From contig CADAWZ010000003.1 of assembly GCA_902791745.1 (NCBI GenBank), positions 1 to 45,758 of the forward strand: a stretch of 45,758 nt of DNA. The letters are read 5' to 3'. The stretch comes from an uncultured bacterium. Lineage in GTDB: Bacteria; Vulcanimicrobiota; CADAWZ01. Of this stretch, positions 1,656 through 20,086 are shown piece by piece. The position numbers and the translations under genes were made by a program. Below the pieces are notes generated by a model that saw only the letters and a list, made by a program, of their open reading frames with translations, made no database searches and was not told the DNA's origin. The first letter of the stretch is position 1. Each line of letters opens with the position of its first letter.

Positions 1656-1678
1656 TTTTTCTCCTAAAAATAAATTAT

Positions 1679-1715
1679 AAAAAAAAGTGGTCATGAAACA
1701 TTTTTCACAACCACT
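1679..1715 (-). terminator. Intrinsic terminator after the SCIFF gene
   Basis: Minus strand AGTGGTTGTGAAA-aatg-TTTCATGACCACT followed by a T run. Confidence 0.75.
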
Positions 1716-1731
1716 CAATCAATCCATAAAA

Positions 1732-1902
1732 TTATCTTCTTTTTTCACATGGTACATTGCCTACTGTGCATGATGTCTTGCATGCAGACTGACAAGATGT
1801 TGCACAATTAGCACATTCTTTTGAAAACTCTTCTTTTTTCCATGGTGCTGAAATCTGAGTAGCAAACTCAAATTTTTCTTCTTTTTTTGTTGTGTTTTGC
1901 AT
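1732..1902 (-). CDS. scfA: Six-cysteine ranthipeptide precursor (SCIFF), 56 aa
   Basis: Not in the ORF track. Manual translation MQNTTKKEEKFEFATQISAPWKKEEFSKECANCATSCQSACKTSCTVGNVPCEKRR*; SCIFF core CxxCxxSCQSACKTSCTVGNxxC; AGGAG RBS upstream. Confidence 0.92.
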   Translation of the reverse strand: MQNTTKKEEKFEFATQISAPWKKEEFSKECANCATSCQSACKTSCTVGNVPCEKRR

Positions 1903-1932
1903 TGAAAAATTCTCCTAAATATATACAAAAAT

Positions 1933-2229
1933 TTAGCCGAGTGAAGAACCTTCTTTATCTGGGAAATCACAGTCTTCACATTCATTAAAACTTGCAAGAG
2001 GTCTTGCCTTATAAGTATGAGTACAGTTTATAAAAATCTTAGCTCCATCTTCAAGATTAAAACCAAAATCGACATGAGGACAAAATCTATCTGGAACATT
2101 ATCCAAACAAAACTCATATAAATCATCATACATACTTGGATGAGCATGTTGGAAATAGTGTTTTTCACATTGGAAAATTCCAAGTAAAGATTGTCTATAA
2201 ACACAAGGTCTATAATTATTAGCAGGCAT
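1933..2229 (-). CDS. Small Cys/His-rich hypothetical protein (98 aa, 7 Cys)
   Basis: ATG 2229 with GGAGG RBS; ends ...ECEDCDFPDKEGSSLG; 30 bp upstream of the SCIFF start, same strand. Confidence 0.7.
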   Translation of the reverse strand: MPANNYRPCVYRQSLLGIFQCEKHYFQHAHPSMYDDLYEFCLDNVPDRFCPHVDFGFNLEDGAKIFINCTHTYKARPLASFNECEDCDFPDKEGSSLG

Positions 2230-2376
2230 AGCAAATCCCTCCAAAACTATCTGTATATCCCAAAAATTTAATTTCTACAGCTTCTTTTGAAAAACCGAGA
2301 AAGAAATATCACTTAAATTTATTTTTTATTCACAATTATTTTATAATACTTCTTTTATAAATAATTTTCCTTTTAA

Positions 2377-2919: not shown

Positions 2920-3934
2920 TTTTACTATCTTCTATTTTTTCTAAATTTTCTTTTTCTGGCTCTTTTGATTCTTTTACATTATCTTCAGATTGATCATGAG
3001 CCACAGGATTATTTTTTTCAGAAATATTTAGAACAACACTACCATCTGAAATTAAAACACCAACATCATTATATGTTACAAATTCAGGAATAATTCGCCT
3101 CAAATTTACCAAACAATAACTTTTATAAGTTTTTACAAAATCATAAGTCAAATTATTTTTTATTGCTTCCATAATTATATTTTGAATAATAAATTCAGGA
3201 ACATTTAATGATTTCATCAAATGAATTTTTTCTATTTCAACTTTTACTAAACTTTTCTTTGAGTCAACAGAAAATTCTACACTAAATGGAATAGTAAAAA
3301 TACTTTTCTTAAAATCACCTTTAAGTATAATTCTACCTGAAGATAAAATAACTTTTATGTTAAAAACACCTTTACTCTCCATATCATGTTTCAAAGATTT
3401 AATCAAATTGTCAATCAATTTTTGCAAAATTCCAATAGTTACTTCTTTTAAATAGATGGAAGAAATAGATAATCCACCTTTTTCAGTTCTTTTTAAAAAT
3501 AATCTAAGAGAAATATCATTTACAGATATTTCAAAATTTTCTGTATTCTTAAGATCTATAGCTTCTATCTCTGAATCAATTATAAGTTCATCAGAATCAT
3601 TTGCAAAAATAAAATCAGCATTTTTTATTTTTATATTTTCAATATATTGTGAAATATTAGCTATAGTTTGGTTTTTCTTTATCAAAGCTGATACAGAAAA
3701 ATTTAAATTTATTCTATCCTCTTCTCCTTCATCTTGTATATCTATAAAAGTAAAATCAGCATTTGTAAATTTTACACTTTTAATCAAAGTTAAAAAATTA
3801 GCTATTTTTTCGTCTTTTTTTACCAAACCTACAAGAGAAAGATTTAAATCTATTCCTTCTTTATCTTCATAATCTTGCAAATCAATATCTGCATTTGGAA
3901 TAACAATTCCATCAATTAAAGATATAAAATCCAT
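2912..3934 (-). CDS. Hypothetical protein with N-terminal internal repeats
   Basis: 340-aa ORF overlapping the hpt start; about 47-aa repeats each ending in NAD(F/I). Confidence 0.8.
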   Translation of the reverse strand: MDFISLIDGIVIPNADIDLQDYEDKEGIDLNLSLVGLVKKDEKIANFLTLIKSVKFTNADFTFIDIQDEGEEDRINLNFSVSALIKKNQTIANISQYIENIKIKNADFIFANDSDELIIDSEIEAIDLKNTENFEISVNDISLRLFLKRTEKGGLSISSIYLKEVTIGILQKLIDNLIKSLKHDMESKGVFNIKVILSSGRIILKGDFKKSIFTIPFSVEFSVDSKKSLVKVEIEKIHLMKSLNVPEFIIQNIIMEAIKNNLTYDFVKTYKSYCLVNLRRIIPEFVTYNDVGVLISDGSVVLNISEKNNPVAHDQSEDNVKESKEPEKENLEKIEDSKND

Positions 3935-4135
3935 TGATATAAAATCCTCGAAAAAAAAATATTTTCCTAAAGTTTTTTCTTTTTTATTTATATTCTTTCC
4001 TTTTTGTCAAAAATTATTATACAAAAAAAAAAATCAAAAGTAAAATTTTAAATTTTTGAAATTATAATAAATTTAATTTATTTTACTTAAAAATTTGGTT
4101 AAAAAAATTTTAACATTCATGAAGGAAAAAATATA

Positions 4136-4232: not shown

Positions 4233-5189
4233 ATGAATGTAACTATTAAAAATGATAATTACCATATTCCAGTGATGTTGAAAGAAACAGTCAATTTTCT
4301 TGAACCGTGGCGAGGTGGAAATTACATTGATTGCACCTTAGGAGGTGGCGGTCATTCAGAAGAAATTCTTTTGACCATGAATGGTCAAGGAAATTTAATT
4401 GGAATAGATAGAGACTCAGAAGCTATCGAAAGAGCTTCAAAAAAATTGGGCAATTTTCAAAATTTCCAAGCTGTAAAGGGAGCATTTGGAGATATTGAAA
4501 ACATTATAAATTCTCTTGATATAAAAAATATCAATGGCTGTATCTTTGATTTAGGTGTTTCATCCCATCAACTTGATGAAGCTCAAAGAGGTTTCAGTTT
4601 TAGATTAGAATCTGATCTTGATATGAGAATGGATCATGATCAAAATTTAACAGCTTATGATATAATTAATAAATATACTGAACAAGAATTAAGTAAAATT
4701 TTTTGGGAATACGGAGAAGAAAGAAAATCAAGAAAAGTTGCCTATGAAATAGTAAAAGAGAGAAAAAAGACTCCAATAAAAACAACATTGCAACTTGCTT
4801 CAATAATAGAAAAATGTATTCCTATAAATAAAAATTCTAAGCATTATATACATCCAGCAACTCGAACTTTTATGGCTCTTAGGATTGCTGTAAATAATGA
4901 GTTATTACAACTTTCAACAGGTTTAGAAGGAATTTTGAGAAAAATAAATGTAGGTGGAGTTGTTGTTGTTATATCTTATCATTCGTTGGAAGATAGAATT
5001 GTAAAAAATATATTTAGAAATCTATCTACCGACCCTGATATAAGAGAACAATATAAAAAAGATGATATTCTGAGTAAGAGATTGGTTAAAAGACTGACAA
5101 AAAAAGTTCTTATACCTTCAGAAGAAGAACAAGCAAAAAATCCTCGTGCCCGTTCGGCAAAAATGAGGGTAATTTCTGTCATATCTTAA
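4233..5189 (+). CDS. rsmH: 16S rRNA m4C1402 methyltransferase RsmH (MraW)
   Basis: HIPVML, DCTLGGGGHS, DLGVSSHQLD, RGFSF, HPATRTF, SYHSLEDRIVK, NPRARSAKMR. Confidence 0.97.
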   Translation: MNVTIKNDNYHIPVMLKETVNFLEPWRGGNYIDCTLGGGGHSEEILLTMNGQGNLIGIDRDSEAIERASKKLGNFQNFQAVKGAFGDIENIINSLDIKNINGCIFDLGVSSHQLDEAQRGFSFRLESDLDMRMDHDQNLTAYDIINKYTEQELSKIFWEYGEERKSRKVAYEIVKERKKTPIKTTLQLASIIEKCIPINKNSKHYIHPATRTFMALRIAVNNELLQLSTGLEGILRKINVGGVVVVISYHSLEDRIVKNIFRNLSTDPDIREQYKKDDILSKRLVKRLTKKVLIPSEEEQAKNPRARSAKMRVISVIS

Positions 5190-5259
5190 ATAATTAATTT
5201 TCCGCAGTCAAAGAATATAATAATATTAAAGAAATCAGAGAATTTGGAGGGTCTGTTTC

Positions 5260-5697
5260 TTGAAGCTCATTGAAATACTAAAAGACAGAAATAATATTAA
5301 TAAAAAGCCCCTATTTAGGCCAGCCGCTTATAGACCAGAAAAGGTTACAAAAATATCTACAGAAGCGGTTATTCTTACATCATTTACAATTTTATTGGTT
5401 ACATTGATGTCAATTTGTTATGTCGGCATTTGTGCCCAAAATGTAAAATCACAATATACTCTCTCAAGACTTAAAGAGAAAAAAATTGCTCTTGAAAAAA
5501 CAAGACTTAATTTAAAACTTGAAGTCAGTAGATTAAACTCACTTGAAAGAATAGAAACTATTGCAAGAAGAGAGTTAGGTATGGCACACCCTCCAAACCG
5601 ACTAATAATCGACATGAGAAATCCTTCTGTTTTGAGAGCATCAATAGAAGATGTTGTTGCCATCGAATCATATGATGAAGAATTGACTTCTGACTAA
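5260..5697 (+). CDS. ftsL: Cell division protein FtsL
   Basis: One TM helix then a coiled coil ending SLERIETIARRELGM; located between rsmH and the PBP; TTG start with GGAGG RBS. Confidence 0.85.
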   Translation: MKLIEILKDRNNINKKPLFRPAAYRPEKVTKISTEAVILTSFTILLVTLMSICYVGICAQNVKSQYTLSRLKEKKIALEKTRLNLKLEVSRLNSLERIETIARRELGMAHPPNRLIIDMRNPSVLRASIEDVVAIESYDEELTSD

Positions 5698-5722
5698 TTT
5701 TTATTTTGCATATTAATTTTGG

Positions 5723-5758
5723 GCTATCCATGGATAAAATTCAAATCCTTTGGATAGC
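5723..5758 (+). other. Intergenic stem-loop between ftsL and ftsI
   Basis: GCTATCCA...TGGATAGC outer stem with inner GGAT/ATCC; only a weak T-rich tail. Confidence 0.45.
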
Positions 5759-5785
5759 TTATTTATATTAAAAAGGAATTTTTAA

Positions 5786-7534
5786 ATGGTAGGTTGGAAA
5801 AAACAAGTAAGAGATAGACTTATTTATGTATTCTATTTTGTGGCACTTTTGTTTCTTGTATTATGTTATAGACTTGTAGATATTCAAATTTTCCAACATG
5901 ATTTATATAAAGCAAAAGCAGAAGACCAACACAAGGGAACTGTAACAATTCCTGCTCTTCGCGGTTCAATAATGGACAGAAAATATGTCGTCTTGGCAAA
6001 TAGTTTAGCCCTCACATCAATAACTGCAGATCCAACAATGGTAAAAGATAGACACAAAACTGCTGTATTATTATCTCAAATTTTGGGAGAATCAGAAGAA
6101 GTTTTAGAAAGCAAATTGAGTGCTGCTACAAGATTTGTTTGGATCGCTCGAAAACTTGATGATGAAAAAGTAGAAAAAATAATGAAGCTTGAACTTCCTG
6201 GAATATATACAATGAAAGAGACTACAGGAAAGCGTTTTTATCCCAAAGGAGAATTAGCTTCACATATTTTAGGCTGTACAGGTATAGACGATCAAGGACT
6301 TGATGGAATAGAAGCCGTTATGGATAACTATCTAAAGGGAAAACCTGGTGAGATGACAGCAGAAATGGATATAAGAGGAAGACTTATACCAGGAGGAGCT
6401 TCTTCCATAATTGCAGCTTCAAGTGGCTATAATGTTGTTTTAACTATTGATGAAAGTATACAATATATTGTTGAAACTGCCCTTGAAAAAGCAGTAAAAG
6501 CCTATGGAGCCGACACAGGCTCTGTTTTAGTAATGGACGCAAAAACAGGAGAAATTCTTGCCCTTGCAAACAAACCAGATTACAAATCAAAAGATCCAAA
6601 ATCACCTGACTATATGCAACTTACAAGAAATAGTATTGTAACAGATGCATATGAACCTGGTTCAACATTCAAAGTCGTTTTAGCTGCAGCTGCTTTGGAC
6701 AGTGGAAAAGTTGGAATGAACGACCAAATACAATGTGGAGATACAATACAGGCTGGTGGTTGGACACTTCACAATGCTAATGATGGTTTTGGTGGAAATG
6801 CAACAGAAACAATAACAGACATCATAGCATTCTCATTTAATACGGGATCAGTTGCTATGGGACTGAGAATGGGGTCAAAAATTTTTTATGACTATATAGT
6901 AAAATTTGGCTTTGGAGATATAACAGGAATAGAATTACCTGGTGAAACTGAGGGAATTTTACCTCCGCTTAAAGATTGGTCTGAAATCAACTTAGCAACC
7001 ATCTCTTTTGGTCAAGGAATAGCAGTTACACCACTGCAAATTGTCTCTGCTGTTCAAGGCTCTATCAATAATGGAGAACAAATGCAACCTCGAATAATAA
7101 GACAAATACTCGACTCTGAAGGAAACATTGTCAAAGACTTTAGACCAGAAGTAAAATCAAGACCAATAAGCAAAGAAACATCATATAAAATAAATATGAT
7201 CCTAAGAAATGTTGTTGAAAATGGAACAGGAAAGAAAGCTCGCATACCAGGTTATTTAGTCGGTGGAAAATCTGGAACAGCAAATGTTGTTGAAAATGGA
7301 ATGTATGCAAAAGGTAAATATATAGCTTCATTTGTAGGGTTTGCACCTGCAGAAGATCCAAAATTTGTCATGCTTGTAAAAATTAAAAATCCCAAAGGTA
7401 CAATTTGGGGAGGTACTGTCTCAGGTCCTATTTTTTCAGAAATTGGAAGAGAAATTCTTTGGAGATTGGGCATTCCACCAAGTTTTCCAAATGAAATAAA
7501 TCAAATGGGAGCAGACCCCAGTAAAAATAATTAA
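5786..7534 (+). CDS. ftsI: Class B penicillin-binding protein (FtsI/SpoVD type), no PASTA domain evident
   Basis: N-terminal TM, RGSIMDR, RFYPKG, SxxK (EPGSTFK), SxN (SFN), KSG triad. Confidence 0.93.
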   Translation: MVGWKKQVRDRLIYVFYFVALLFLVLCYRLVDIQIFQHDLYKAKAEDQHKGTVTIPALRGSIMDRKYVVLANSLALTSITADPTMVKDRHKTAVLLSQILGESEEVLESKLSAATRFVWIARKLDDEKVEKIMKLELPGIYTMKETTGKRFYPKGELASHILGCTGIDDQGLDGIEAVMDNYLKGKPGEMTAEMDIRGRLIPGGASSIIAASSGYNVVLTIDESIQYIVETALEKAVKAYGADTGSVLVMDAKTGEILALANKPDYKSKDPKSPDYMQLTRNSIVTDAYEPGSTFKVVLAAAALDSGKVGMNDQIQCGDTIQAGGWTLHNANDGFGGNATETITDIIAFSFNTGSVAMGLRMGSKIFYDYIVKFGFGDITGIELPGETEGILPPLKDWSEINLATISFGQGIAVTPLQIVSAVQGSINNGEQMQPRIIRQILDSEGNIVKDFRPEVKSRPISKETSYKINMILRNVVENGTGKKARIPGYLVGGKSGTANVVENGMYAKGKYIASFVGFAPAEDPKFVMLVKIKNPKGTIWGGTVSGPIFSEIGREILWRLGIPPSFPNEINQMGADPSKNN

Positions 7535-7548
7535 ATAGTGGTAAGATC

Positions 7549-8997
7549 ATGAAAATAAAAGAAATAGTAAAAAATATAAATTGTTCAATAGTACATATTG
7601 ATGAAAAGACAGAAATTGATAATGTTACATGTGATTCAAGAGAAGCAAACGAAAAATCTTTGTTTTTCTGTATAAAAGGCTTCAAAACAGATGGTCATAA
7701 CTTTATTAAAGATGTACTGCAAAAAGGATGTAAATCTTTTTGCATATCTGAAAACATAGAATTTGAAAATGGAATAAATGTAATAAAAACAAATGATCCA
7801 CGAAAAGCATATGCAGAAGCCTCTATTGCATTTTATGATCACCCTGCAGAAAAAATGAGAATTATAGGTGTAACAGGCACAAATGGCAAAACAACATCTA
7901 CATTTATGATTAGTCATATATTGAACTCTCTACAAAATCCTACAGGACTAATGGGAACACTATACACAAAATTCGCAGACAAACAAATAACATCATCAGT
8001 AACAACTCCTGATGCAAAAACACTTCAACACAATCTTTCAGAAATGGTAAAAGCAGGCATAAAAAATGCTGTTTTTGAAGTTTCATCTCATGCTCTTAGT
8101 TTAGATAGAGTACATGGAATCAAATTTGATGTCGCTGTTTTTACAAATTTGACAAGAGACCATCTTGATTTCCACAAAAATTTTGATGAATATTTTGAGG
8201 CAAAATTAAAATTATTCCAAAATCTAAAAAAAGAAACTGGAATAGCTATTATAAATACAGATGATGAATATGGAATAAAAATCCCGAACTTGATAGATTC
8301 AAAATGCATTACATATGGAATCAAAAGTGGAGACATAAGGGCTTTTGATCCTAAAGTTGGACAAAAAGGTATTTCATATACACTTATAAGTGGAAATAAA
8401 AAAATACAAGTAAATCTTCAAATATCTGGATTTTTCAATGTATATAATTCCCTCGCTTCTATATGTGCATGTAAAGCTCTTGGAATAAGTGAAGAAGAAT
8501 CCTGCAAGGCTCTTGAATCTTTTACAGGTGTAAAAGGTCGTTTTGAACTTGTAAAAACAAAAAAAGATTTTGTAGCAATAGTTGATTATGCACATACTCC
8601 TGACGGCTTAGAAAATGTATTAAAAACAGCTAAAGCAATAAGTCATAACAAAGTAATTGCTGTTTTTGGCTGTGGTGGAGATAGAGATAAGACAAAAAGA
8701 CCAATAATGGGAAAAATAGCCTCTGATCTGTCAGATATAACAATAATAACATCTGACAACCCAAGAACAGAAAATCCAGATTCAATAATAGAAGATATAG
8801 AAAAAGGAGTTCCTGAAGGCAAAAAATATCACAAAGAAGTTGATAGAGAAAAAGCAATTAAATTGGCAACAGAAATGGCAACTTCTGGTGATGTAATTGT
8901 AGTAGCTGGAAAAGGGCATGAAAATTATCAAATATTTAAGGATAAAACTATCCATTTTGATGATACTGAAGTTTTGAATAAATATTTGATGGGATAA
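7549..8997 (+). CDS. murE: UDP-MurNAc-L-Ala-D-Glu--meso-diaminopimelate ligase
   Basis: GVTGTNGKTT, TTPD, EVSSH, NLTRDHLDFH, DYAHTPD, AGKGHE; DNPR motif indicates meso-DAP. Confidence 0.97.
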   Translation: MKIKEIVKNINCSIVHIDEKTEIDNVTCDSREANEKSLFFCIKGFKTDGHNFIKDVLQKGCKSFCISENIEFENGINVIKTNDPRKAYAEASIAFYDHPAEKMRIIGVTGTNGKTTSTFMISHILNSLQNPTGLMGTLYTKFADKQITSSVTTPDAKTLQHNLSEMVKAGIKNAVFEVSSHALSLDRVHGIKFDVAVFTNLTRDHLDFHKNFDEYFEAKLKLFQNLKKETGIAIINTDDEYGIKIPNLIDSKCITYGIKSGDIRAFDPKVGQKGISYTLISGNKKIQVNLQISGFFNVYNSLASICACKALGISEEESCKALESFTGVKGRFELVKTKKDFVAIVDYAHTPDGLENVLKTAKAISHNKVIAVFGCGGDRDKTKRPIMGKIASDLSDITIITSDNPRTENPDSIIEDIEKGVPEGKKYHKEVDREKAIKLATEMATSGDVIVVAGKGHENYQIFKDKTIHFDDTEVLNKYLMG

Positions 8998-9007
8998 CCA
9001 GAAATTC

Positions 9008-9164
9008 GAGGCGTGTTGGTAAACTCTATTTTTAATTTGTAAGTTTTCGGCTACGCCAATTTTTGAGGTATAAGTCATTCACTTCAAGCTTCGCTTCGCT
9101 CTATTCCGTTCATTGACTTGCACCACACAAAATTGGCTAATTTGGAGTTTACCCTCTCAACCCT
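9008..9164. mobile_element. MITE-like hairpin element, copy A
   Basis: GGTAAACTC...GAGTTTACC outer IR, GCCAATTTT...AAAATTGGC inner IR, core CATTCACT..CGCTTCGCTCTA..GTTCATT shared with copies at 37860 and 44416. Confidence 0.75.
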
Positions 9165-9167
9165 AAT

Positions 9168-9256
9168 AAAAAATATTTGATAAATTTTCACGATGGGGAG
9201 AGAAGACAAAATACAAAAAATATTTGATAAATTTTCATGATTGGGAAAAAAGACAA
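9168..9256 (+). repeat. Imperfect direct repeat, about 42 bp, period 47, upstream of murF
   Basis: AAAAAATATTTGATAAATTTTCA(C/T)GAT(G/T)GGGA(G/A)A(G/A)AAGACAA starting at 9168 and 9215. Confidence 0.85.
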
Positions 9257-10623
9257 TGATACCAATAAAATTAAGTGAAATATTTTCAATTTTTGGCAAA
9301 AATATGACCGTTGAAGATGTCGATATAAAAAATGTATCTACAGATTCAAGAACAATAGAAAAAGGCGATTTATTTGTGCCTATAGTTGGAGAAAATTTTG
9401 ATGGTCATAAATTCATAGAAAAAGCATTTACAAGTGGTGCAAGTGCTTCTCTGTGTCATGTAAATCAAGTAGAAAAATACACCAAATTCTCAGAAAAAAT
9501 AATACCTGTTGAAAATACACTCGACGCACTTTTAAAAATTGCTGGACATTACAGAAAACAATTCACTTTTCCAATAACAGCAATAACTGGAAGTAACGGA
9601 AAAACAACAGTAAAAGATATTTTAGTTCATTTGCTTTCAGCCAAATATAAAACAAATGGAACTTTTGAAAACTTCAACAATGAAATAGGAGTTCCAAAAA
9701 CAATTTTTTCCTGTGATTCAAATACAGAATTTCTCGTCGTTGAAATGGGAATGAGAGGAAAAGGACAGATAAGGAAACTCGTATCTGAAGTAAAGCCAAC
9801 ATCTGCAATTATAAGCATGATAGGAGAAGCACATTTTGAACTTCTCGGTTCAAGAAAAAATATAGCCGAAGCAAAAGCTGAAATAACAGAGCAACTTCCA
9901 AAATCTGGATTTGTTGTTATGAATGGAGATGACGATTTTGCAGATCTCATCAAAGAAAAATCCTCAGCTCCAGTTTATTTTTTTGGAAAATCAGATAGAT
10001 GTACGCTCAAAATTTTGTCATGTTCTCAAAAAGAAAATGGAATTGATGTAGAAGCAGATTATAAAGGCAAAAAAATAAATTATTTTGTACCACTTCTCGG
10101 AATACACAATGTATATAATGCAAGTGGAGCATTGCTATCAGCTCTATTAAGTGGTGTTGAATTGGATCAAGCTATTGAGCAATTAAAAACTGTAAAAATA
10201 TCAGGAAGCAGAATAGAAATAATAAAAACAGACAAATATACAATCTTAAATGATTGTTATAATGCAAGTCCTTCTTCTGCTAAAGCTGCAGTCGAAATAT
10301 TGTCTTCACAGAATGCAAATCATAGAACAGCAATTATAGGAGATATGGGAGAATTAGGAGAGATAGCAGAAAATTCTCACTATGAACTCGGTCAAAAAAT
10401 AGGAAAATCAAAAATAGATTTGCTACTTGTTGCTGGTCAATTTGATAACTTAGTAATTGAAGGGGCACTAAATGCAGGAATGGATAAAAATTCTTGTATA
10501 TCTTTTGAAAAAACAGAAAATTTTGAGAAAGTTATGGATAAAATACCATTAAAAAGTACAGTGCTTGTAAAGGCTTCACATTCAATGCACTTTGAAAATA
10601 TAACAAAATGTTTAACTAAGTAA
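9256..10623 (+). CDS. murF: UDP-MurNAc-tripeptide--D-Ala-D-Ala ligase
   Basis: TDSR, GENFDGH, AITGSNGKTT, NFNNEIG, EMGM, NDCYNASP, GDMGELG, VKAS; ATG 9256 preferred over TTG 9241. Confidence 0.96.
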   Translation: MIPIKLSEIFSIFGKNMTVEDVDIKNVSTDSRTIEKGDLFVPIVGENFDGHKFIEKAFTSGASASLCHVNQVEKYTKFSEKIIPVENTLDALLKIAGHYRKQFTFPITAITGSNGKTTVKDILVHLLSAKYKTNGTFENFNNEIGVPKTIFSCDSNTEFLVVEMGMRGKGQIRKLVSEVKPTSAIISMIGEAHFELLGSRKNIAEAKAEITEQLPKSGFVVMNGDDDFADLIKEKSSAPVYFFGKSDRCTLKILSCSQKENGIDVEADYKGKKINYFVPLLGIHNVYNASGALLSALLSGVELDQAIEQLKTVKISGSRIEIIKTDKYTILNDCYNASPSSAKAAVEILSSQNANHRTAIIGDMGELGEIAENSHYELGQKIGKSKIDLLLVAGQFDNLVIEGALNAGMDKNSCISFEKTENFEKVMDKIPLKSTVLVKASHSMHFENITKCLTK

Positions 10624-10644
10624 CAACGATCAAAGGGAGAAAAA

Positions 10645-11667
10645 ATGGATTTTTCAGTAATACCAGACTATTTTAGATTTGTAGCACCTTTATTAGGAAT
10701 AAGTTTTATCATAAGTATGATAATATTTCCTTTTTATATAAAAGCATTAAAAAAATTACAATGGGGACAACAAATAAGAGAAGAAGGTCCAGAAGATCAT
10801 CTATCTAAAAAGGGAACTCCTACAATGGGAGGACTCGCAATAATTGTAGTCTTTATTCTAACTTCATTATGTCTTCCATTTATTCCATCTACTTATAATG
10901 GTAAGCCATTGCAATTAACTCCTGATTACTATGTATTTGCTGGAATAATATTAATAAACGCAGGATTGGGGTTTGTTGATGATTTTTTAAAAATCAAAAA
11001 AAGTAAGTCATTAGGACTTCGTGCAAGAGATAAAATGACAGTACATCTGATAATGGCTATTGCTACAGCATACTATATGATTAACTTTACAGAAATTGGC
11101 AGTAAAATATTTATTCCATTTTTAGGTCATTCAATAGAATTTGGTTGGTGGTTATATCCTTTCTTTATGCTTGTTCTTCCTGGATGTGTAAATGCTGTAA
11201 ATTTGACAGATGGTCTTGATGGTCTCGCAGGAATAAATATAATAATATCTCTATCTGCATTCAGTCTCATACTTCTTGTAATGGGAAGAATAGATATGGT
11301 TACAGGCGGAATAATAATAGCAGGTGCTTTAATGGCATTCCTTTGGTTCAACTGTTATCCTGCCAAAATATTTATGGGTGATACAGGTTCGCTCGCACTC
11401 GGTGGTGCAATAGCAGGAATGGCTATTTTAACAGGAACAGAATTGATTCTCTGCATAATTGGCGGAATTTATGTATGCGAAGCACTGTCAGTTATGATTC
11501 AAGTAACATATTTCAAAAAAACTGGTGGTAAAAGAATATTTAGAATGACCCCTATTCATCACCATTTTGAAAAAGGTGGAATGCATGAAACACAAGTTAC
11601 AATGCGTTTTGCTATAACAGGCTTTATGTTTGCAGTATTAGGACTTTATGCATATTTTGGTTTTTAA
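10645..11667 (+). CDS. mraY: Phospho-N-acetylmuramoyl-pentapeptide transferase
   Basis: KKGTPTMGG, GFVDD, NAVNLTDGLDGL, FMGDTGS, PIHHHFE. Confidence 0.97.
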   Translation: MDFSVIPDYFRFVAPLLGISFIISMIIFPFYIKALKKLQWGQQIREEGPEDHLSKKGTPTMGGLAIIVVFILTSLCLPFIPSTYNGKPLQLTPDYYVFAGIILINAGLGFVDDFLKIKKSKSLGLRARDKMTVHLIMAIATAYYMINFTEIGSKIFIPFLGHSIEFGWWLYPFFMLVLPGCVNAVNLTDGLDGLAGINIIISLSAFSLILLVMGRIDMVTGGIIIAGALMAFLWFNCYPAKIFMGDTGSLALGGAIAGMAILTGTELILCIIGGIYVCEALSVMIQVTYFKKTGGKRIFRMTPIHHHFEKGGMHETQVTMRFAITGFMFAVLGLYAYFGF

Positions 11668-11687
11668 AAAATTAGAGGCAACAAAAA

Positions 11688-13058
11688 ATGGAATTCAAAA
11701 ACAAAAAAATTTCAATAGCTGGATTTGGAAAAAGTGGAAAATCCATAGCTGAGATATTATTAAAAAATGGAAATGAAATATTTATAAGTGATAGTGGAGA
11801 AGAATCAAAATTCACCGAACTTATAAAAGAACTCGATTCAACAAAAGTAACATATGAATTTGGAGGTCATACTTCAAAAATATATGAAGGTAAAGATCTC
11901 ATCATAATAAGTCCTGGTGTTTCGATATATACCCCTGCAATACAAGAAGCAATCAAACACAATGTTCCAGTAATGGGAGAAGTTGAAATTGCCTATGAAA
12001 TGGCAAAAGCTGATATAATTGCAATAACAGGAACAAATGGAAAATCAACAACTGTAAGTATGATCGATAAAATGCTAAAAGATCATGGATTAAAATCCAT
12101 TTTAGCAGGAAATATTGGCACTCCCCTATCTTATGAAATATATAATCACAAGGAAGCCGATTATATTGTCGCAGAAATTTCAAGTTTCCAACTTGAATCA
12201 ATATCAAAATTTCGTCCACACATTGCAGGAATAACAAATATAACAGATGATCACACCGACAGACATCATGGTTTTGAAAACTATGTAAAAGCAAAAGCAA
12301 GAATTTTCATGAATCAAACTGAAAATGATTTTGCAATTTTAAATGCAGATGATAAAAATGTATTAAAAGCAGGAGAAGGAATAAAATCAAAAATATTATT
12401 CTTTTCAATGGAAAAAGAAGTAAATAATGGTTTCTATCTCAAAAATGGAATAGTCTATAATAGTGAAAACAACATTTCAAAAGAATGTTTCAATATAAAT
12501 GAATTTAAAATACATGGAATACACAATATAAAAAATTTATTGACTACACTATGTGTTGGTAAAATATTAAATATATCACCTAAAGAAGTATTAAGTTCTA
12601 TAAATGAATACAAACTAATGCACCATAGACTTGAGTTTTCTGGAGAAAAAAATGGCGTCAAATTCTATGACGATTCAAAAGGAACAAATCCAGGTGCCGT
12701 AATTGCAGGAATAAATAGTTTTTCATGTCCTATAGCACTTATTGTAGGTGGAAGAAACAAAGGACTTGATTTTGATGAAATGGCAAAAGAAATCGCCCAA
12801 AAAGTACATACTCTTGTATGTATTGGTGAAGCTGGTCCTGAAATAGGCGAACTTGCCAAAAAACATGGAATGAAAAATATAATTAACTGTGGAACTGATT
12901 TTACAAAAGCAATAACAGAAGCATATAAATCAGTAGAAAATTTAAATGGTTGTGTGCTTTTATCTCCTGCAAATGCAAGTTTTGATATGTTCAAATCTGC
13001 AGAAAATAGAGGGGATATATTTAAAGAAATTGTACAAAATTTGATTAAGAGGTCTTAA
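11688..13058 (+). CDS. murD: UDP-MurNAc-L-Ala--D-Glu ligase
   Basis: GFGKSG, SPGV, ITGTNGKST, GNIG, EISSFQL, HRLE, DDSKGTN, SPANASFD. Confidence 0.97.
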   Translation: MEFKNKKISIAGFGKSGKSIAEILLKNGNEIFISDSGEESKFTELIKELDSTKVTYEFGGHTSKIYEGKDLIIISPGVSIYTPAIQEAIKHNVPVMGEVEIAYEMAKADIIAITGTNGKSTTVSMIDKMLKDHGLKSILAGNIGTPLSYEIYNHKEADYIVAEISSFQLESISKFRPHIAGITNITDDHTDRHHGFENYVKAKARIFMNQTENDFAILNADDKNVLKAGEGIKSKILFFSMEKEVNNGFYLKNGIVYNSENNISKECFNINEFKIHGIHNIKNLLTTLCVGKILNISPKEVLSSINEYKLMHHRLEFSGEKNGVKFYDDSKGTNPGAVIAGINSFSCPIALIVGGRNKGLDFDEMAKEIAQKVHTLVCIGEAGPEIGELAKKHGMKNIINCGTDFTKAITEAYKSVENLNGCVLLSPANASFDMFKSAENRGDIFKEIVQNLIKRS

Positions 13059-13060
13059 AT

Positions 13061-14236
13061 TTGAAAAAGAAACCTGATTTAACTATTATTTTAATAAGTA
13101 CAATATTGCTGATGATCGGTACAGTAATGGTTTTTAGTGCAAGTTCTCCTACTTGTGCTATGCTATCTGAATACGGTAATGATCCATACTATTATCTAAA
13201 AAAACAAATTGTAAATATCGCTATAAGCCTTGGTCTTTTTTGGTTATGTGCTGTGATAGACATAAAAGCCATGAAAAAATATGGTCATTTACTATTCATA
13301 TTAAATTTAGTATTGATAAGTATAATATTAGTTCCTGGAGTTGGAATAACTTCAAAAGGAGCTACTCGATGGCTTGGAGTTGGAAGTATTTCTTTTCAAC
13401 CAGCCGAATTTGCAAAATTATTTTGCGTGATATTTATGGCATCATATCTTTCAAAAAGAGCTGAAAAAATAAAAAATTCTTGGCAATTTTGGATTTTGAC
13501 GGGTTGGATAGTTTTAACTGCTGGTTTAATTGAAAGAGAACCAGATTTAGGAACAGCCCTTTCGATATGTATAGTATTTATGATAATGTTGTACATAAGT
13601 GGAGCCAAATTATCAGATATGGCTTGGCTAACTGGTCTTGGTGCGTCTGTTGTCAGTGCTATTTTGATATTTGGAGGAAATTCCTATAGAATAAAAAGAC
13701 TGACATCTTTTTTAGATCCTTGGAAAGATTCACAAGATTCAGGTTACCATGTATGCCAATCAATAATAGCAATAGGTTCGGGTGGTTTTGGTTTAGGATT
13801 GGGAGAAAGCCGACAAAAATATTTCTATCTTCCTGAACAACATACAGATTTTGTATTTGCAATAACAGGAGAAGAATTAGGAATAATAGGCACACTTATA
13901 ATTATTTTACTATTTTGCTTTTTCCTACACAGAGGCTTCAAAATTGCTTCCGAAACAAGCGACTTATTTTTGAGATTACTTGCAGTTGGTTGTACCTTAA
14001 TGATAACTCTACAGGCATTTATGAATATAGGAGTTGTAATAGGACTTTTACCTTGTACAGGAATTCCACTTCCATTTATAAGTTATGGAGGTTCTTCCTT
14101 AATGGTTACATTAATGATGGTAGGACTTCTATTTAATATTTCACAATATTGTTCCAGAGACGGAATAGGATTGCAACTGGATGACGAAAAGTCAGATTAT
14201 GATTTCAACGAATGTTTAGATGCAGAAGAAGATTAA
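13061..14236 (+). CDS. ftsW: SEDS family peptidoglycan polymerase FtsW
   Basis: Multi-TM; GATRW, FQPAEFAK, EPDLG, YLPEQHTDF, PFISYGGSS. Confidence 0.95.
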   Translation: MKKKPDLTIILISTILLMIGTVMVFSASSPTCAMLSEYGNDPYYYLKKQIVNIAISLGLFWLCAVIDIKAMKKYGHLLFILNLVLISIILVPGVGITSKGATRWLGVGSISFQPAEFAKLFCVIFMASYLSKRAEKIKNSWQFWILTGWIVLTAGLIEREPDLGTALSICIVFMIMLYISGAKLSDMAWLTGLGASVVSAILIFGGNSYRIKRLTSFLDPWKDSQDSGYHVCQSIIAIGSGGFGLGLGESRQKYFYLPEQHTDFVFAITGEELGIIGTLIIILLFCFFLHRGFKIASETSDLFLRLLAVGCTLMITLQAFMNIGVVIGLLPCTGIPLPFISYGGSSLMVTLMMVGLLFNISQYCSRDGIGLQLDDEKSDYDFNECLDAEED

Positions 14237-14251
14237 AGGCGATTAAAAAAA

Positions 14252-15340
14252 ATGAACATAATATTTACAGGTGGTGGCACTGGTGGTCATCTATATCCAG
14301 CAATAGCTGTTGCAAGAGCATTAAAAGAGAAAGATTCAAATAACAATATATTATTTATTGGAAATGAAAATGGCATAGAATCAACAATAGTTCCCAAAGA
14401 GGGATTTGATATAAAATTTGTAAAATGCAGTTCATTCAGTTCAAATCCAATAAAACTTGCAACTGGACTTTGTAAAGTTGCAACTGGAATATTTGAATCA
14501 CTTTCTATAATATCAAAATTTAAACCCAATATAATAGTAGGAAGTGGAGGATATGTAAGTGCTCCTGTAACATTTGCAGGAAGTCTAAAGAAAGTACCTG
14601 TTGTTCTTCTCGAACAAAATACAATATCAGGAAAAACAAACAGATTTATAGGAAAATTTGCAAAAAAAATTTGTATAAGTTTTGAAGACAGTGCAGAATC
14701 ATTTCCTAAAAACAAAACAGTATTTACAGGAAATCCTGTCAGAGATGATATATTATCAGCAGATAGAGAAGAATCAAGGAAAGAACTAAACATAAACAAA
14801 GACCAATTTTGTATTTTAGTAACTGGAGCAAGTCAAGGTGCTAAAAGCATAAACAACGGAATTATCGAATGTTTAAAAAAATGGAAAGATAAAGATATTA
14901 CTATAATTCATCTAACAGGTGAAAAAAATTGGGAAGAAATAAAAAAAGCAACAGAAGAATTAACAAAGAATTCAAAAATTGATTACAGACCTGTTGCTTA
15001 TATGAACAATATAGCATCTGCCTATGCTTCTTGTGATTTAGTCATAGCAAGAGCAGGAGCAACTACATTAGCAGAAATTTCCGATAGAGGAATTCCTGCC
15101 ATTCTAATCCCCTACCCTCACGCAGCAGAAGACCATCAAAAGAAAAATGCATTATTTTTTGAAAAGAAAAATGCTGCAATAGAAATTGACGATGATAAAA
15201 TTCAAGAAAAATTAATAGAAACAGTAGAAATACTTATAAATGATAAAAATAAATTGGATTCTATGAGTAGAGCATGTAAAAATTTAGGAAAACCCAATGC
15301 AGTTTTTGAAATTTTAAAGGTATTAGAAGAAATAAAGTAG
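14252..15340 (+). CDS. murG: Lipid II GlcNAc transferase MurG
   Basis: GGGTGGHLYP, GGYVS, EQN, GNPVR, GASQGA, RAGATT, HQKKNA. Confidence 0.97.
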   Translation: MNIIFTGGGTGGHLYPAIAVARALKEKDSNNNILFIGNENGIESTIVPKEGFDIKFVKCSSFSSNPIKLATGLCKVATGIFESLSIISKFKPNIIVGSGGYVSAPVTFAGSLKKVPVVLLEQNTISGKTNRFIGKFAKKICISFEDSAESFPKNKTVFTGNPVRDDILSADREESRKELNINKDQFCILVTGASQGAKSINNGIIECLKKWKDKDITIIHLTGEKNWEEIKKATEELTKNSKIDYRPVAYMNNIASAYASCDLVIARAGATTLAEISDRGIPAILIPYPHAAEDHQKKNALFFEKKNAAIEIDDDKIQEKLIETVEILINDKNKLDSMSRACKNLGKPNAVFEILKVLEEIK

Positions 15341-15387
15341 AAGAGTAACATTTAACTTTTTTGAGATTTTGAGGTTTTTTTTATATA

Positions 15388-16827
15388 ATGCGACATATTC
15401 ATTTCATCGGTATTGGCGGAATAGGAATGAGTGGAATTGCCCAAATACTGATAAAAAAAGGCTATAAGGTTTCAGGTTCAGACTTAAAAAAATCGAACTT
15501 AACTGAAAATCTTGAAAACCTTGGAGCGAAAATTTATTACAATCATAATAAATCAAATATAGATGGTGCAGATACTGTAGTCTATTCTACAGCTATTTCT
15601 GAAAATAATATAGAAGTTCAATCTGCAAAAGAAGCAGGAATACAAATTATAAAAAGAGCAGAAATGCTTGGTTTTTTGATGAATGGACAAAATGGAACTG
15701 CAGTAGCAGGAACCCATGGAAAAACTACAACATCATCTATGATTTCTTATGTATTTAAATATATAGGATTAAATCCAACTGTGATAATAGGTGGAGAACT
15801 TTCCGCAATAACATCGAATGCATACTCTGGAACAGATCCATATTTAATAGCAGAAGCAGATGAAAGTGATGCATCATTTTTATATTTAAATCCTAAAATT
15901 GCAGTAATAACAAGTATTGACTCAGATGTAAATTTAAATGTAAGACCTTGGAGAGAATATAGAGATGACACACCTTTACTCATGGAAAAAATAAGGGAAA
16001 CATTTATAAATTTCACAGATAAAGTTCTTGAATCTGGATTAGTTGTTTTATGTGAAGATAATGCAGAAGTTAGAAAGATAAAATCAAGCATAAAAAGAAA
16101 AATAATAACTTATGGAATAAACCATGACGCTGATTTAATAGCAAAAGACATCAAATTATATGATTTTAAATCGTCTTGTGATGTATATTTAAAAGGTGAA
16201 AAAGTAGGAACTATGAATTTAAATGTTCCAGGAAAACACAATATACAAAATGCACTTGCATGTATTGCTGTCTGTACTGGATACGGATTTGATATAACAC
16301 AAGTCATAAATGCACTTGAAAAATTTGGAGGGTTAAAAAGAAGATTTGAAATCATTGGTAGACCAATGGGAACTATGATAGTAGATGACTATGCTCATAA
16401 TCCCTCTAAAATAATGTCAGCTTTACATGCAACAAAAACAGGAAATGCAAAAAGGGTTATAGCAGTATATCAACCACATAGATATTCACGCTCTAAATAT
16501 GAAAAAGAAGAATTATCTGAATCATTCTTTGAAGCAGACAAACTTATAATAAACGAAATATATTCTGCGGGTGAAAAACCTCTGGAAGATATATCTGGTG
16601 AAATACTAGCAGAATTGACAGCTAAAAAATCTCCAAATCTCGATGTAACTTTTATATCAGACCCTAAAGAAGCATTTGATAGCTTAATAGATAAAGTCAA
16701 AGAGGGAGATTTAATCATAGCACTTGGTGCAGGAGACATAACAAATTATGTCCATGAATTCTGTAATAAGCTCCAAGAGAAAGAAAAAAATAGCAAACAA
16801 GAAACTCATATTGCACATTGTGTCTAA
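15388..16827 (+). CDS. murC: UDP-MurNAc--L-alanine ligase with atypical motifs
   Basis: HFIGIGGIGMSG, GSD, AGTHGKTTT, EADESD, QPHRYSR; the usual DHLD and YAHHP motifs are altered. Confidence 0.92.
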   Translation: MRHIHFIGIGGIGMSGIAQILIKKGYKVSGSDLKKSNLTENLENLGAKIYYNHNKSNIDGADTVVYSTAISENNIEVQSAKEAGIQIIKRAEMLGFLMNGQNGTAVAGTHGKTTTSSMISYVFKYIGLNPTVIIGGELSAITSNAYSGTDPYLIAEADESDASFLYLNPKIAVITSIDSDVNLNVRPWREYRDDTPLLMEKIRETFINFTDKVLESGLVVLCEDNAEVRKIKSSIKRKIITYGINHDADLIAKDIKLYDFKSSCDVYLKGEKVGTMNLNVPGKHNIQNALACIAVCTGYGFDITQVINALEKFGGLKRRFEIIGRPMGTMIVDDYAHNPSKIMSALHATKTGNAKRVIAVYQPHRYSRSKYEKEELSESFFEADKLIINEIYSAGEKPLEDISGEILAELTAKKSPNLDVTFISDPKEAFDSLIDKVKEGDLIIALGAGDITNYVHEFCNKLQEKEKNSKQETHIAHCV

Positions 16828-16833
16828 AAGAAA

Positions 16834-17604
16834 ATGAAAAGAAAAACGGAAAAATTTAAACTTAAGCCAATATTTCATGGAAGTATTCCAAGAAAAATAT
16901 TTATTCTTTTTCTTTTTATTATCTCTCAGATTATATTTTTAAGTTCACAAAGTTTTCTATTAAATTGTGTTGAAATAAAAGGTCTGGAAAGGATAGAAGG
17001 AAACGATATTAAAGAAAAATGCAAACCTCCATTTGGTCATCTAATATGGTTTGCAAATACTGATGCGATGAATGAAAGTCTTTTATCAATTCCTTGGATA
17101 AAAGATTCAACAATAAAAAAAGTATATCCAAACAAACTTGTAATATCTGTTTCTGAAAGAAAACTTGTTTTAGCAGAAGCAAATGAGGCTTCTCCAAATA
17201 AATGGTATGGAGTTGATTCAGAAGGCTATATTTTAGCCGAAATAGAATCTAAAAAAGCTGGAAATTATCCTAAATTAATGGTTCAAAAAGAAATAATATT
17301 AAATTCAAAAGATAGTAAATCAAATATAAAATCTATTTTAAATGTTGATTCAATTATCTCAAAAAAAGACAAACAAAATATAAAATATTACAAAATAGAT
17401 GAAGGCGGATACATCTCATTTGTATATGACACAGGAAAAAGGACATTTGAAGTTAAAATAGGTGAACCTGAAAATGCATCTGAAAAAATGAAAATATTTA
17501 CAGCAATGAGAGAACAAATGGGAAATCAAATAAACTATTTAGAATACATAGATTTAAGATATTCTGAGCCTGTTGTAAAATTAAGAGGATTTATAAAAAA
17601 ATAG
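16834..17604 (+). CDS. ftsQ: Cell division protein FtsQ/DivIB
   Basis: N-terminal TM, POTRA-like segment (PWIKDSTIKKVYPNKLVISVSER), C-terminal YIDLRY. Confidence 0.88.
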   Translation: MKRKTEKFKLKPIFHGSIPRKIFILFLFIISQIIFLSSQSFLLNCVEIKGLERIEGNDIKEKCKPPFGHLIWFANTDAMNESLLSIPWIKDSTIKKVYPNKLVISVSERKLVLAEANEASPNKWYGVDSEGYILAEIESKKAGNYPKLMVQKEIILNSKDSKSNIKSILNVDSIISKKDKQNIKYYKIDEGGYISFVYDTGKRTFEVKIGEPENASEKMKIFTAMREQMGNQINYLEYIDLRYSEPVVKLRGFIKK

Positions 17605-17607
17605 CTT

Positions 17608-18360
17608 ATGGAAAAAAATAACAATCAACACAACAGAGAAAATTGGCAAATTCCAATAGCTATAACCTGCATGTTACTTGGCATAGTAGTTACAATGCAA
17701 TTTAAAATGCAAGAAAAAGCAGGTTTTCCTCAACTTTCAAACAACAGAAATGACATGATAAAAATGGTTCATGAGCTTGAAGTTCAGAAAAACAAATTGG
17801 AAAAAGATCTCGAACAAAAAAAGAAAGAATTGAGCAATTTTGAGCAAGTTTCAGGAAGCAAAGAAGATTTAGTAAAAGCTATGCAAAATCAACTCGATAT
17901 GATAAGAACTGAAGCTGGCTATACAGATGTAAAAGGTCCTGGTATTATTGTGGAGTTATCAGATTCGGCAAAAAGACCTGCTCCAAAAGATGATCCATTC
18001 TTTTTTATAGTACATGATGTGGATATTGCTACACTTGTAAATGAATTATGGGCTTCAGGGGCCGAAGCAATTTCCGTAAATGGTCAAAGAATAGTTATAA
18101 ACACATCTATAAGATGTGTAGGGCCAACTGTTCTTATAAATTCAGTTAGATTAGCTTCACCATATAAAATAATTGCTATAGGTCCAGCAAAAGACTTAGA
18201 TGGAGCTTTAAGAACTCCTGGTGGATTTGTAGATTATATGACACCTTCGACAAATCAAGGAGTTAATGTAATCATAAACAAATATGACAATTTAGAAATT
18301 TCTGGATATAAAGGAAGTATGATATTGAGATATGCAGTTCCAGTGGGAGCTGAAAAATAA
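17608..18360 (+). CDS. DUF881 family protein (YlxW/YlxX-like)
   Basis: TM plus coiled coil; GPGIIVELSD, VHDVDI..LVNELWASGAEAISVNGQR, IRCVG. Confidence 0.9.
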   Translation: MEKNNNQHNRENWQIPIAITCMLLGIVVTMQFKMQEKAGFPQLSNNRNDMIKMVHELEVQKNKLEKDLEQKKKELSNFEQVSGSKEDLVKAMQNQLDMIRTEAGYTDVKGPGIIVELSDSAKRPAPKDDPFFFIVHDVDIATLVNELWASGAEAISVNGQRIVINTSIRCVGPTVLINSVRLASPYKIIAIGPAKDLDGALRTPGGFVDYMTPSTNQGVNVIINKYDNLEISGYKGSMILRYAVPVGAEK

Positions 18361-18741
18361 ATGTGGATATTACTCGGTCTTATATTGGGAATAGTAATTG
18401 CTTTTATTCTTCCATCTCAATTTACTTTTCCAATTGCATATTCAACATATATATCGGTTGCATTTTTAGCAGGACTTGATTCTGTTATAGGTGGAATAAA
18501 AGGTGGAATTGAAGGAAAATTCGATTTATCTGTATTTATTTCTGGCTTTATAATGAATACATTGCTTGCAGCTCTAATAACTTGGATGGGAGATAGAATA
18601 GGAGTCGATCTATATATGGCTGCTATAGTTACATTTGGAGTTAGAATTTTTAATAACTTGGGATATATAAGACATGATTTAATGAATAAAAATCATAAAG
18701 ATAAGAATGAAGAAAAAACTATTAAAGAAGAAAACAAATAA
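18361..18741 (+). CDS. sbp: Small basic protein Sbp (DUF1290)
   Basis: YISVAFLAGLDSVIGG, FISGF..NTLLA, GVDLY.AA...FGVRIFNN; usual dcw position. Confidence 0.88.
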   Translation: MWILLGLILGIVIAFILPSQFTFPIAYSTYISVAFLAGLDSVIGGIKGGIEGKFDLSVFISGFIMNTLLAALITWMGDRIGVDLYMAAIVTFGVRIFNNLGYIRHDLMNKNHKDKNEEKTIKEENK

Positions 18742-18780
18742 AAACGGCAAAATATTTTTTGAATGTGAGGTTAATTTTAA

Positions 18781-20013: not shown

Positions 20014-20086
20014 ATTTTAATTAAGGGTCTGTTCCCAAGAATCTCATCTCTTTTTATGAGAGATTCAAGAATGGAGGTTATATATT

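Follow-up and report, generated by a model that had tools for sequence, protein, structure and literature searches.

Few ribosomal peptide systems of anaerobes are as conserved as SCIFF, which is treated as a strict two-gene cassette. Maturation in trans is familiar from prochlorosins (ProcA/ProcM) and from Nif11- or NHLP-type RiPPs, in which the enzyme acts on distant precursor genes and each enzyme serves many diverse precursors. For SCIFF, Haft (2017) counted 234 radical-SAM genes no more than 500 bp away from a SCIFF gene, all of them above the TIGR03974 cut-off, and worded the expectation that each ScfA is accompanied by a ScfB (PMC5300114). A review gives the distribution of SCIFF as Clostridia and cites Chen 2020 for a quorum-sensing role there (PMC8326336), and a 2026 pangenome paper describes the SCIFF precursor and an RRE gene as the conserved core of clostridial ranthipeptide clusters (PMC13673991). 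Our search of the literature found no paper linking SCIFF or ranthipeptides with Eremiobacterota.

Here we describe a SCIFF pair from a rumen-type 'Candidatus Xenobia' MAG of the phylum Vulcanimicrobiota, which we take to be the Eremiobacterota or WPS-2, the label used in NCBI protein names. The DNA analyzed, called the window, is a 45,758-nucleotide stretch of one contig of this genome that carries the precursor gene and otherwise consists of a dcw cell-division cluster and housekeeping genes. Compared with the clostridial ScfA-ScfB pairs (CteA-CteB of Clostridium thermocellum, Tte1186a-Tte1186), the six-Cys core is common to both (…C..C.TSCQSACKTSCTV.N..C…), the positions of the donor Cys and acceptor Thr of CteA are kept, and the enzyme that we assign to the peptide has the CteB fold, as predicted, with all cluster-binding Cys. 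The two genes are unlinked here, whereas those of the clostridial cassette are adjacent; the leader is 9 residues longer than in clostridial SCIFF, with an invariant Trp and no Gly-Gly before Cys1; the enzyme has an N-terminal domain some 20 residues shorter than that of clostridial ScfB and scores under the cut-off; and the host belongs to Eremiobacterota/Xenobia, not Clostridia. Unlike the systems of the ProcA/ProcM type, this one has a single, highly conserved precursor.

Results

The SCIFF precursor gene and its signals

The precursor (ScfA-type) gene occupies positions 1732-1902 of the minus strand and runs for 56 codons from an ATG start, an assignment based on the ORF listing, the TIGR03973 and PF13165 profiles, and selection; its translation is MQNTTKKEEKFEFATQISAPWKKEEFSKECANCATSCQSACKTSCTVGNVPCEKRR. 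An AGGAG ribosome-binding site (1912-1916, minus strand; ctcct on the plus strand), read from the sequence, lies 9 nt 5′ of the ATG. On the other side, a terminator scan and folding place an intrinsic terminator at 1677-1716 (minus strand), composed of a 14-pair hairpin (1716-1685) that begins 16 nt past the SCIFF stop codon and a T run. The 900-nt region holds two terminator-like sites versus 0.2 expected from shuffles, and the RNA fold of the terminator, at -18.6 kcal/mol (z = -4.2), was equaled by none of 200 shuffles. The original prediction of a 56-aa ORF with its own ribosome-binding site, a six-Cys core, and a terminator just downstream is thus borne out in each part by the AGGAG, the 14-pair hairpin, and the HMMs. 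A promoter-like site, TTCACT-16-TATATT (1918-1945, minus strand), matches the consensus at 9/12 positions and falls within the 3′ end of the upstream gene; because the region has fewer such sites (two, in a consensus scan) than shuffles have (5.0), the site is no evidence by itself; it is weak and possibly unused. The MetE/URO-D-like gene downstream most plausibly starts 3′ of the hairpin, at an AGGAG-preceded ATG near 1655.

The SCIFF ORF is under purifying selection. All nucleotide differences from a same-genus copy (8/8, over 36 codons of the ORF) are synonymous, and relative to G004, from another genus, 20 differences lie in residue-keeping codons and 3 in residue-changing codons. Public collections already list the identical peptide as a called protein, with 7 member sequences, 73 contigs, and a precomputed PF13165 assignment. 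The 56-codon ORF is a genuine SCIFF precursor gene.

A Trp-leader subtype of SCIFF

The original prediction had been staked on a match to the SCIFF profile, and a TIGR03973 search of the whole genome returned one, the 1732-1902 ORF, which passes only just (50.8 bits; cut-off, 50). PF13165 scores 50.2 against a cut-off of 27. Coverage of the two profiles is partial (positions 14-43 and 16-44 only) and takes in the core with the last part of the leader. The six Cys, at residues 30, 33, 37, 41, 45, and 52, keep the spacing C-x2-C-x3-C-x3-C-x3-C-x6-C with the TSCQSACKTSCTV block, dividing the peptide into a leader (1-29), a core (C30-C52) with Thr at 43 and 46, and an EKRR tail. The leader, MQNTTKKEEKFEFATQISAPWKKEEFSKE, has no Gly-Gly before Cys1, lacks the canonical M-K-H-I-K-T, and contains a conserved stretch, FATQISAPW, at residues 13-21. 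Database searches found 39 relatives of the peptide, 32 of which were aligned as a subtype after P0016 and the six most canonical-like sequences (P0034-P0039) were left out; none of the 32 departs from W21, T43, T46, or any of the six Cys.

The leader had been described as both longer than the canonical one and unrelated to it. The first half of that description stands, with 29 residues before Cys1 compared with 20 in the canonical SCIFF P0039. The second half does not: the alignment with canonical leaders runs through intermediates that keep a K/R-H-I/F motif, and leaders such as MEHITILAEPW… and …LRHIRVISPPW… form a bridge to MKHIKT…, so the leader has diverged and gained 9 residues in length but is not unrelated. 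The peptide can be placed, on this alignment, in a distinct 'Trp-leader' SCIFF subtype. One of the omitted sequences, P0016, is a 44-aa form of a same-genus peptide in which 11 residues of the core, flanked by two …C…TSC repeats, are missing; it comes from a 1.1-kb contig, and the deletion probably arose through misassembly or slippage.

An ScfB-like enzyme encoded on another contig

Pfam detected no radical-SAM domain among the 47 window ORFs scanned (44 of at least 110 aa and 3 next to the peptide), and none of these is an ScfB gene within about 500 bp of the SCIFF gene. Within this scope of ORFs of at least 110 aa and the peptide's neighbors, the claim that the window has no radical-SAM gene was correct. 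We therefore turn to the genome as a whole, which comprises 213 contigs and is 89.8% complete. The TIGR03974 search that had been proposed for it yields a single strong match in the assembly (E = 1.1e-108), an ScfB-like radical-SAM/SPASM gene on contig C11 (C11:17613-18905). This is an intact ORF of 430 aa with a TTG start and GGGGAG upstream.

TIGR03974 is the best NCBIfam family for the C11 enzyme, with 363.8 bits, under the curated cut-off of 425; the match spans profile positions 82-447 only, leaving the first 62 residues of the enzyme unmatched. The runner-up models are NF040492 (323.5 bits), PapB (231), and QhpD (194), and both PF04055 and PF13186 match. NF040492, the 'ScfB-related radical SAM/SPASM orphan maturase,' describes proteins that are likewise ScfB-like without an adjacent SCIFF gene; the C11 genome, in contrast, does hold a SCIFF gene, and the enzyme is not a member of that family because it scores 323.5 against a cut-off of 855. 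The closest solved protein in a phmmer search of the PDB is CteB (5wgg/5why; 1e-84, residues 68-425). An AF2 model built on 42 sequences reached a pLDDT of 91, and its top Foldseek match is 5wgg_A (TMq 0.87 over 446 columns, including the N-terminal domain). The CxxxCxxC motif (C88/C92/C95) is invariant in the 42 sequences, as is the C-terminal/SPASM set of C314, C322, C340, C378, C381, C387, C391, and C410. At the N-terminus, the model shows three strands (9-30) and then two helices (32-65), all with high pLDDT; in the alignment with canonical ScfB, the three strands are kept and gaps of about 13 and about 10 residues fall in the helical part and linker. The C11 enzyme is ScfB-like, with a CteB-like predicted fold. 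In NCBI records, the split-type enzymes (defined below) are named only 'SPASM domain-containing protein,' and relatives of the peptide carry the name 'six-cysteine ranthipeptide SCIFF [Candidatus Eremiobacteraeota bacterium].' This constitutes an annotation gap, in which the peptide is named and the enzyme is not.

A completeness of 89.8% leaves room for a maturase outside the assembly, and an unassembled or unrecognized enzyme might modify the peptide instead. The three weaker radical-SAM matches in this genome are to RlmN and to a pair of generic SPASM/twitch proteins (C8, C195), and the latter two, whose roles are unassigned, would be possible candidates for such an enzyme. We rejected all three as the maturase; each of the twitch pair scores at most 110 bits on any peptide-maturase model and at most 40 bits on TIGR03974. 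We consider modification by such an enzyme highly improbable, and the suggestion that a different kind of maturase serves the peptide is not favored.

Co-occurrence of peptide and enzyme across the phylum

We surveyed 401 genomes of one phylum, Vulcanimicrobiota. SCIFF occurs in 21/401, with 18 over the cut-off, and in 0/297 genomes of the largest family. An ScfB-like gene scoring at least 347 bits is present in 20/21 SCIFF genomes versus 0/380 SCIFF-less genomes; the sole SCIFF genome without one, G007, is 62% complete, and two SCIFF-less genomes have weaker matches of 221 and 206 bits. As in the clostridial systems, there is one peptide gene and one enzyme gene per genome. The profile is strong but does not amount to 400 independent trials, because related genomes inherit genes together by descent. 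SCIFF and ScfB-like genes strictly co-occur in the surveyed phylum, with few independent events.

This pattern bears on the possibility that the peptide is an unmodified, Cys-rich metal- or redox-binder and the C11 enzyme an orphan with another substrate. Such a division would agree with the lack of a maturase in the window, with the enzyme's score under the ScfB cut-off, with the existence of ScfB-related orphans implied by the NF040492 model, and with the Cys/His-rich nature of the neighbor with which SCIFF shares RNA-library contigs (see below). It is at odds with the 20/21 versus 0/380 match in presence and absence (at 347 bits or more), with the enzyme's low score on the orphan model itself, and with the invariance of Thr43 and Thr46 beside Cys, which metal binding alone would not need. 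Nor does the enzyme gene have an alternative partner at hand: at 11 split-type maturase loci, searched out to 600 bp from the gene, no small ORF with at least three Cys is conserved. A hidden second precursor beside the maturase was rejected, the candidate small ORFs at the 11 loci being nonconserved frames. An unmodified metal-binding peptide, one of the readings first put forward, is therefore very unlikely, and we retain the reading in which the C11 enzyme acts on the SCIFF peptide.

The genes are split in most genomes that have both

The 20 genomes with both genes show two layouts. The genes are adjacent in 8 (G011, G012, G015, G018, G021, G026, G030, G033) and lie on different contigs in 12 (G000-G006, G008, G013, G019, G024, G029), all of them fragmented draft MAGs, in which different contigs are no measured distance. 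The family of the present genome is split in 6/6, and the split subtype spans at least seven GTDB families. The split layout is common to a group of related gut and environmental bacteria. It had been anticipated that a maturase elsewhere in the genome, with split loci common in relatives, would lessen the novelty of the finding, and this is the case (12/20 overall; 6/6 in the family).

With 12/12 split cases in draft MAGs and the peptide gene of this genome 1.7 kb from its contig end, the split might be read as an assembly artefact that conceals a maturase close to the peptide gene on the true chromosome. The provable minimum separation in this genome is only about 3 kb. In G002, from the same genus, the nearest contig ends are at least 29 kb away from one gene and 11.5 kb away from the other, which sets a minimum separation of about 40 kb; in G005, distances of 6 kb and 19 kb give at least about 25 kb. 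These contig-end distances exclude the canonical spacing of less than 500 bp. Moreover, both genes have their own conserved, different neighbors on either side. The peptide gene is flanked by a Cys/His-rich gene and a MetE-like gene, within a family gene order of an unknown 340-aa protein, a phosphoribosyltransferase, the Cys/His-rich protein, and SCIFF, and the enzyme gene is flanked by rpsT and a T2SSF/pilC-like gene. Because each gene keeps its own conserved neighbors, the split is not an illusion of contig breaks, and an assembly artefact is barely credible as its source. The comparison of homologous neighborhoods that had been suggested thus shows separate loci with conserved flanks of their own, and we take the split to be real.

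The pilC-like gene is directly 3′ of the maturase gene and on the same strand in 9/12 split genomes from five GTDB families (G000-G003, G005, G006, G019, G024, G029). It does not follow the maturase in G008 and G013, and the contig ends in G004. Several further observations were made around the maturase. On C11 (G000), a 62-codon ORF before pilC (L001:2659-2847; pilC, 3009-4076) reads MPKFTYEATDSRGKTV…, compared with MPKFVYEATDSRGKTV… at the pilC N-terminus; it looks like a partial pilC duplication between maturase and pilC, and it is not seen in same-genus genomes. A Ham1/RdgB-type gene adjoins the split-type maturase in three families (L053, L052, and L051 in G008, G019, and G029), and a Ham1 gene is found at 29810-30406 of the window, on SCIFF's own contig and 28 kb away from it; this placement may be left over from the rearrangement by which SCIFF and maturase were parted. 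The maturase ORFs of G013 (L055:6924-8714, 596 codons) and G006 (L050:8492-10387, 631 codons) have long N-terminal extensions. NCBI records list proteins of 596 aa for G013 and 457 aa for G006, and the extension in G006, at least, is probably an artefact of start choice. As for the rest of the window, the dcw cluster (4233-21283, plus strand) begins some 2.3 kb away from the SCIFF gene; it is complete and ordinary in content (mraW, ftsL, PBP, murE, murF, mraY, murD, ftsW, murG, murC, ftsQ, DUF881, DUF1290, ftsA, ftsZ).

Two precursor subtypes and two groups of enzymes

An alignment of 18 precursors separates them by layout. Split precursors (12/12, and that of G007) have leaders that fit the pattern …(K/R/E)(H/x)(I/F)xx(I/V)xx(P/x)W and then turn acidic; Gly-Gly is missing ahead of Cys1, and the core reads C(A/T/G)xC(A/Q/S)(T/I)SCQSACKTSCT(V/I)GN(V/I)xC. 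Adjacent precursors (8/8) have 'GGC' at Cys1 and end in TV(S/T)(N/H)(Q/T)xC, and 3/8 have lost the fifth Cys (G012, G018, and G011; L035, L026, and L044). The adjacent cassettes (G015, G021, G026, G030, G033; G011, G012, G018) share with the pair described here the phylum and the same two families; they differ in their GG-type leaders, and five of their enzymes exceed 570 bits on TIGR03974. Five-Cys SCIFF variants, with CKTSITV or CKTSATV, come from three other families, and their maturases score 347-409 bits.

We computed a maximum-likelihood tree of 35 maturase rows, without G007, which has no maturase, and without three near-duplicates of G021, namely G026, G030, and G033. The adjacent-type enzymes cluster with clostridial ScfB (support 89/88). 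The split-type enzymes fall outside the clostridial/adjacent group, and those of this family and its sister family are joined with support of 100/100. The root of the tree is unsure because the outgroup sits on a very long branch. On the strength of the grouping, the match between subtype and layout may go back to a single split event.

The Cys/His-rich neighbor

The gene upstream of SCIFF (1933-2244, minus strand) encodes a Cys/His-rich protein of about 98-103 aa that belongs to no known family, searches of Pfam and NCBIfam having given no match. It adjoins SCIFF in 6/6 genomes of the family, and the protein is 88-95% identical between the family's genera, compared with 24-78% for its neighbors. 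The gene occurs in 31/41 relatives, including families without SCIFF, which led us to reject the protein as a SCIFF-specific partner. A metal site is suggested by its invariant Cys, His, and Arg. Its AF2 model (pLDDT 58) was too poor for a fold search, protein-atlas matches reached only 0.85, below the useful range, and a homologue search recovered 12 hypothetical proteins.

Part of a 1.5-kb stretch is contained in 15 listed RNA-library runs, and we compared contigs from four runs of four studies. Single contigs extend over 1738-2293, 1746-2280, 1760-2310, and 1819-2390 with 0-1 differences, covering the Cys/His-rich gene and all or part of the SCIFF gene. Because contigs cannot prove transcription, strand, or ends, they give only a weak hint that the SCIFF gene is expressed, within a two-gene transcript that would end near the hairpin. 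Most of 1200-1700 and 2400-2700 is without an RNA-library contig, a gap that counts as no finding. In run X6, short RNA contigs of other organisms match the SCIFF core only (1766-1800 of the window), one of them at a word depth of 128; SCIFF genes of other rumen bacteria seem to be abundant in these RNA libraries.

Predicted complex and proposed mechanism

With both chains supplied as alignments, the predicted enzyme-peptide complex scored 0.83, compared with 0.02 for the best of three controls. This mark is reached by 116/157 solved complexes and 2/215 mismatched pairs, counts that hold only roughly here because we supplied our own alignments. Between runs, 58% or more of the contacts recur, and the pLDDT of the partner is 55 or higher. 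In the prediction, the contacts with least error join residues 24-31 of the enzyme (the third N-terminal strand) to leader residues 13-21, and core residues 29-41 contact the SPASM region (309-341, 385, and 391). CteB has been solved, reportedly together with its peptide, and the high score may for this reason stem from the predictor having learned that structure. We read the predicted complex as a sign of likeness to CteB rather than of binding.

We propose the following sequence of events. The peptide would be translated from its own ribosome-binding site, on a transcript that is possibly shared with the upstream Cys/His-rich gene and that would end at the hairpin. The FATQISAPW stretch (around residues 13-21) would dock as an extra beta-strand on the shortened, putative N-terminal recognition sheet of the enzyme, allowing the core to enter the radical-SAM/SPASM active site of the C11 protein. 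There, a 5′-deoxyadenosyl radical would take a hydrogen from a Thr side chain, and a Cys thiol would close the thioether. In CteA, the cross-link is described as an S-C-gamma bond from Cys32 to Thr37 or Thr34 (PMC8326336). C41, T43, and T46, invariant in 32 sequences, match CteA Cys32, Thr34, and Thr37 when counted on P0039, and by analogy the bond here would join C41 with T43 or T46. That the enzyme modifies the peptide, which bond it forms, and what role the peptide has are all points that we infer.

Discussion

We conclude, with a probability of about 0.82, that the cognate enzyme of this SCIFF peptide is the genome's single ScfB/CteB-like protein, encoded on C11 and acting in trans; this enzyme is most likely the cross-linker of the peptide. 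Of the explanations first offered for a SCIFF gene without a neighboring maturase, a distant maturase is the one that the data support, through the ScfB-like gene on C11 and its co-occurrence with the peptide gene across the phylum. An ScfB/CteB-like enzyme encoded in trans accounts for the maturase that had seemed to be missing.

Three aspects are new, and together they are modest but coherent. The first is a non-clostridial SCIFF subtype with a Trp-type leader. The second is an enzyme whose putative recognition domain is shortened and whose score lies under the family cut-off, and the third is a stable unlinked layout with new fixed neighbors. The known chemistry is unchanged by these findings. 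SCIFF family models and genome-mining rules lean on adjacency, and a split pair would fall into a blind spot of adjacency-based mining; the subtype described here keeps peptide and enzyme together in the genome yet apart on the chromosome, outside Clostridia. The leader and the shortened, putative recognition domain also make a natural pair for the study of co-evolution between the two.

The layout invites speculation about what the peptide does. SCIFF in these bacteria could form a dispersed, chromosomally fixed housekeeping circuit, in which the Cys/His-rich gene and the precursor gene share a transcript and the maturase heads a conserved maturase-pilC unit, an idea that we regard as unlikely. 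If it were true, the peptide would be no free antimicrobial or quorum signal; it would work together with a pilus-type machine (a type IV pilus or type II secretion platform), or be exported or sensed by way of one, or alternatively would have a thiol or metal function with its Cys/His-rich neighbor. Regardless of how that idea fares, the fixed neighbors of the two genes, a Cys/His-rich protein on one side and pilC on the other, provide testable hints to the function of SCIFF.
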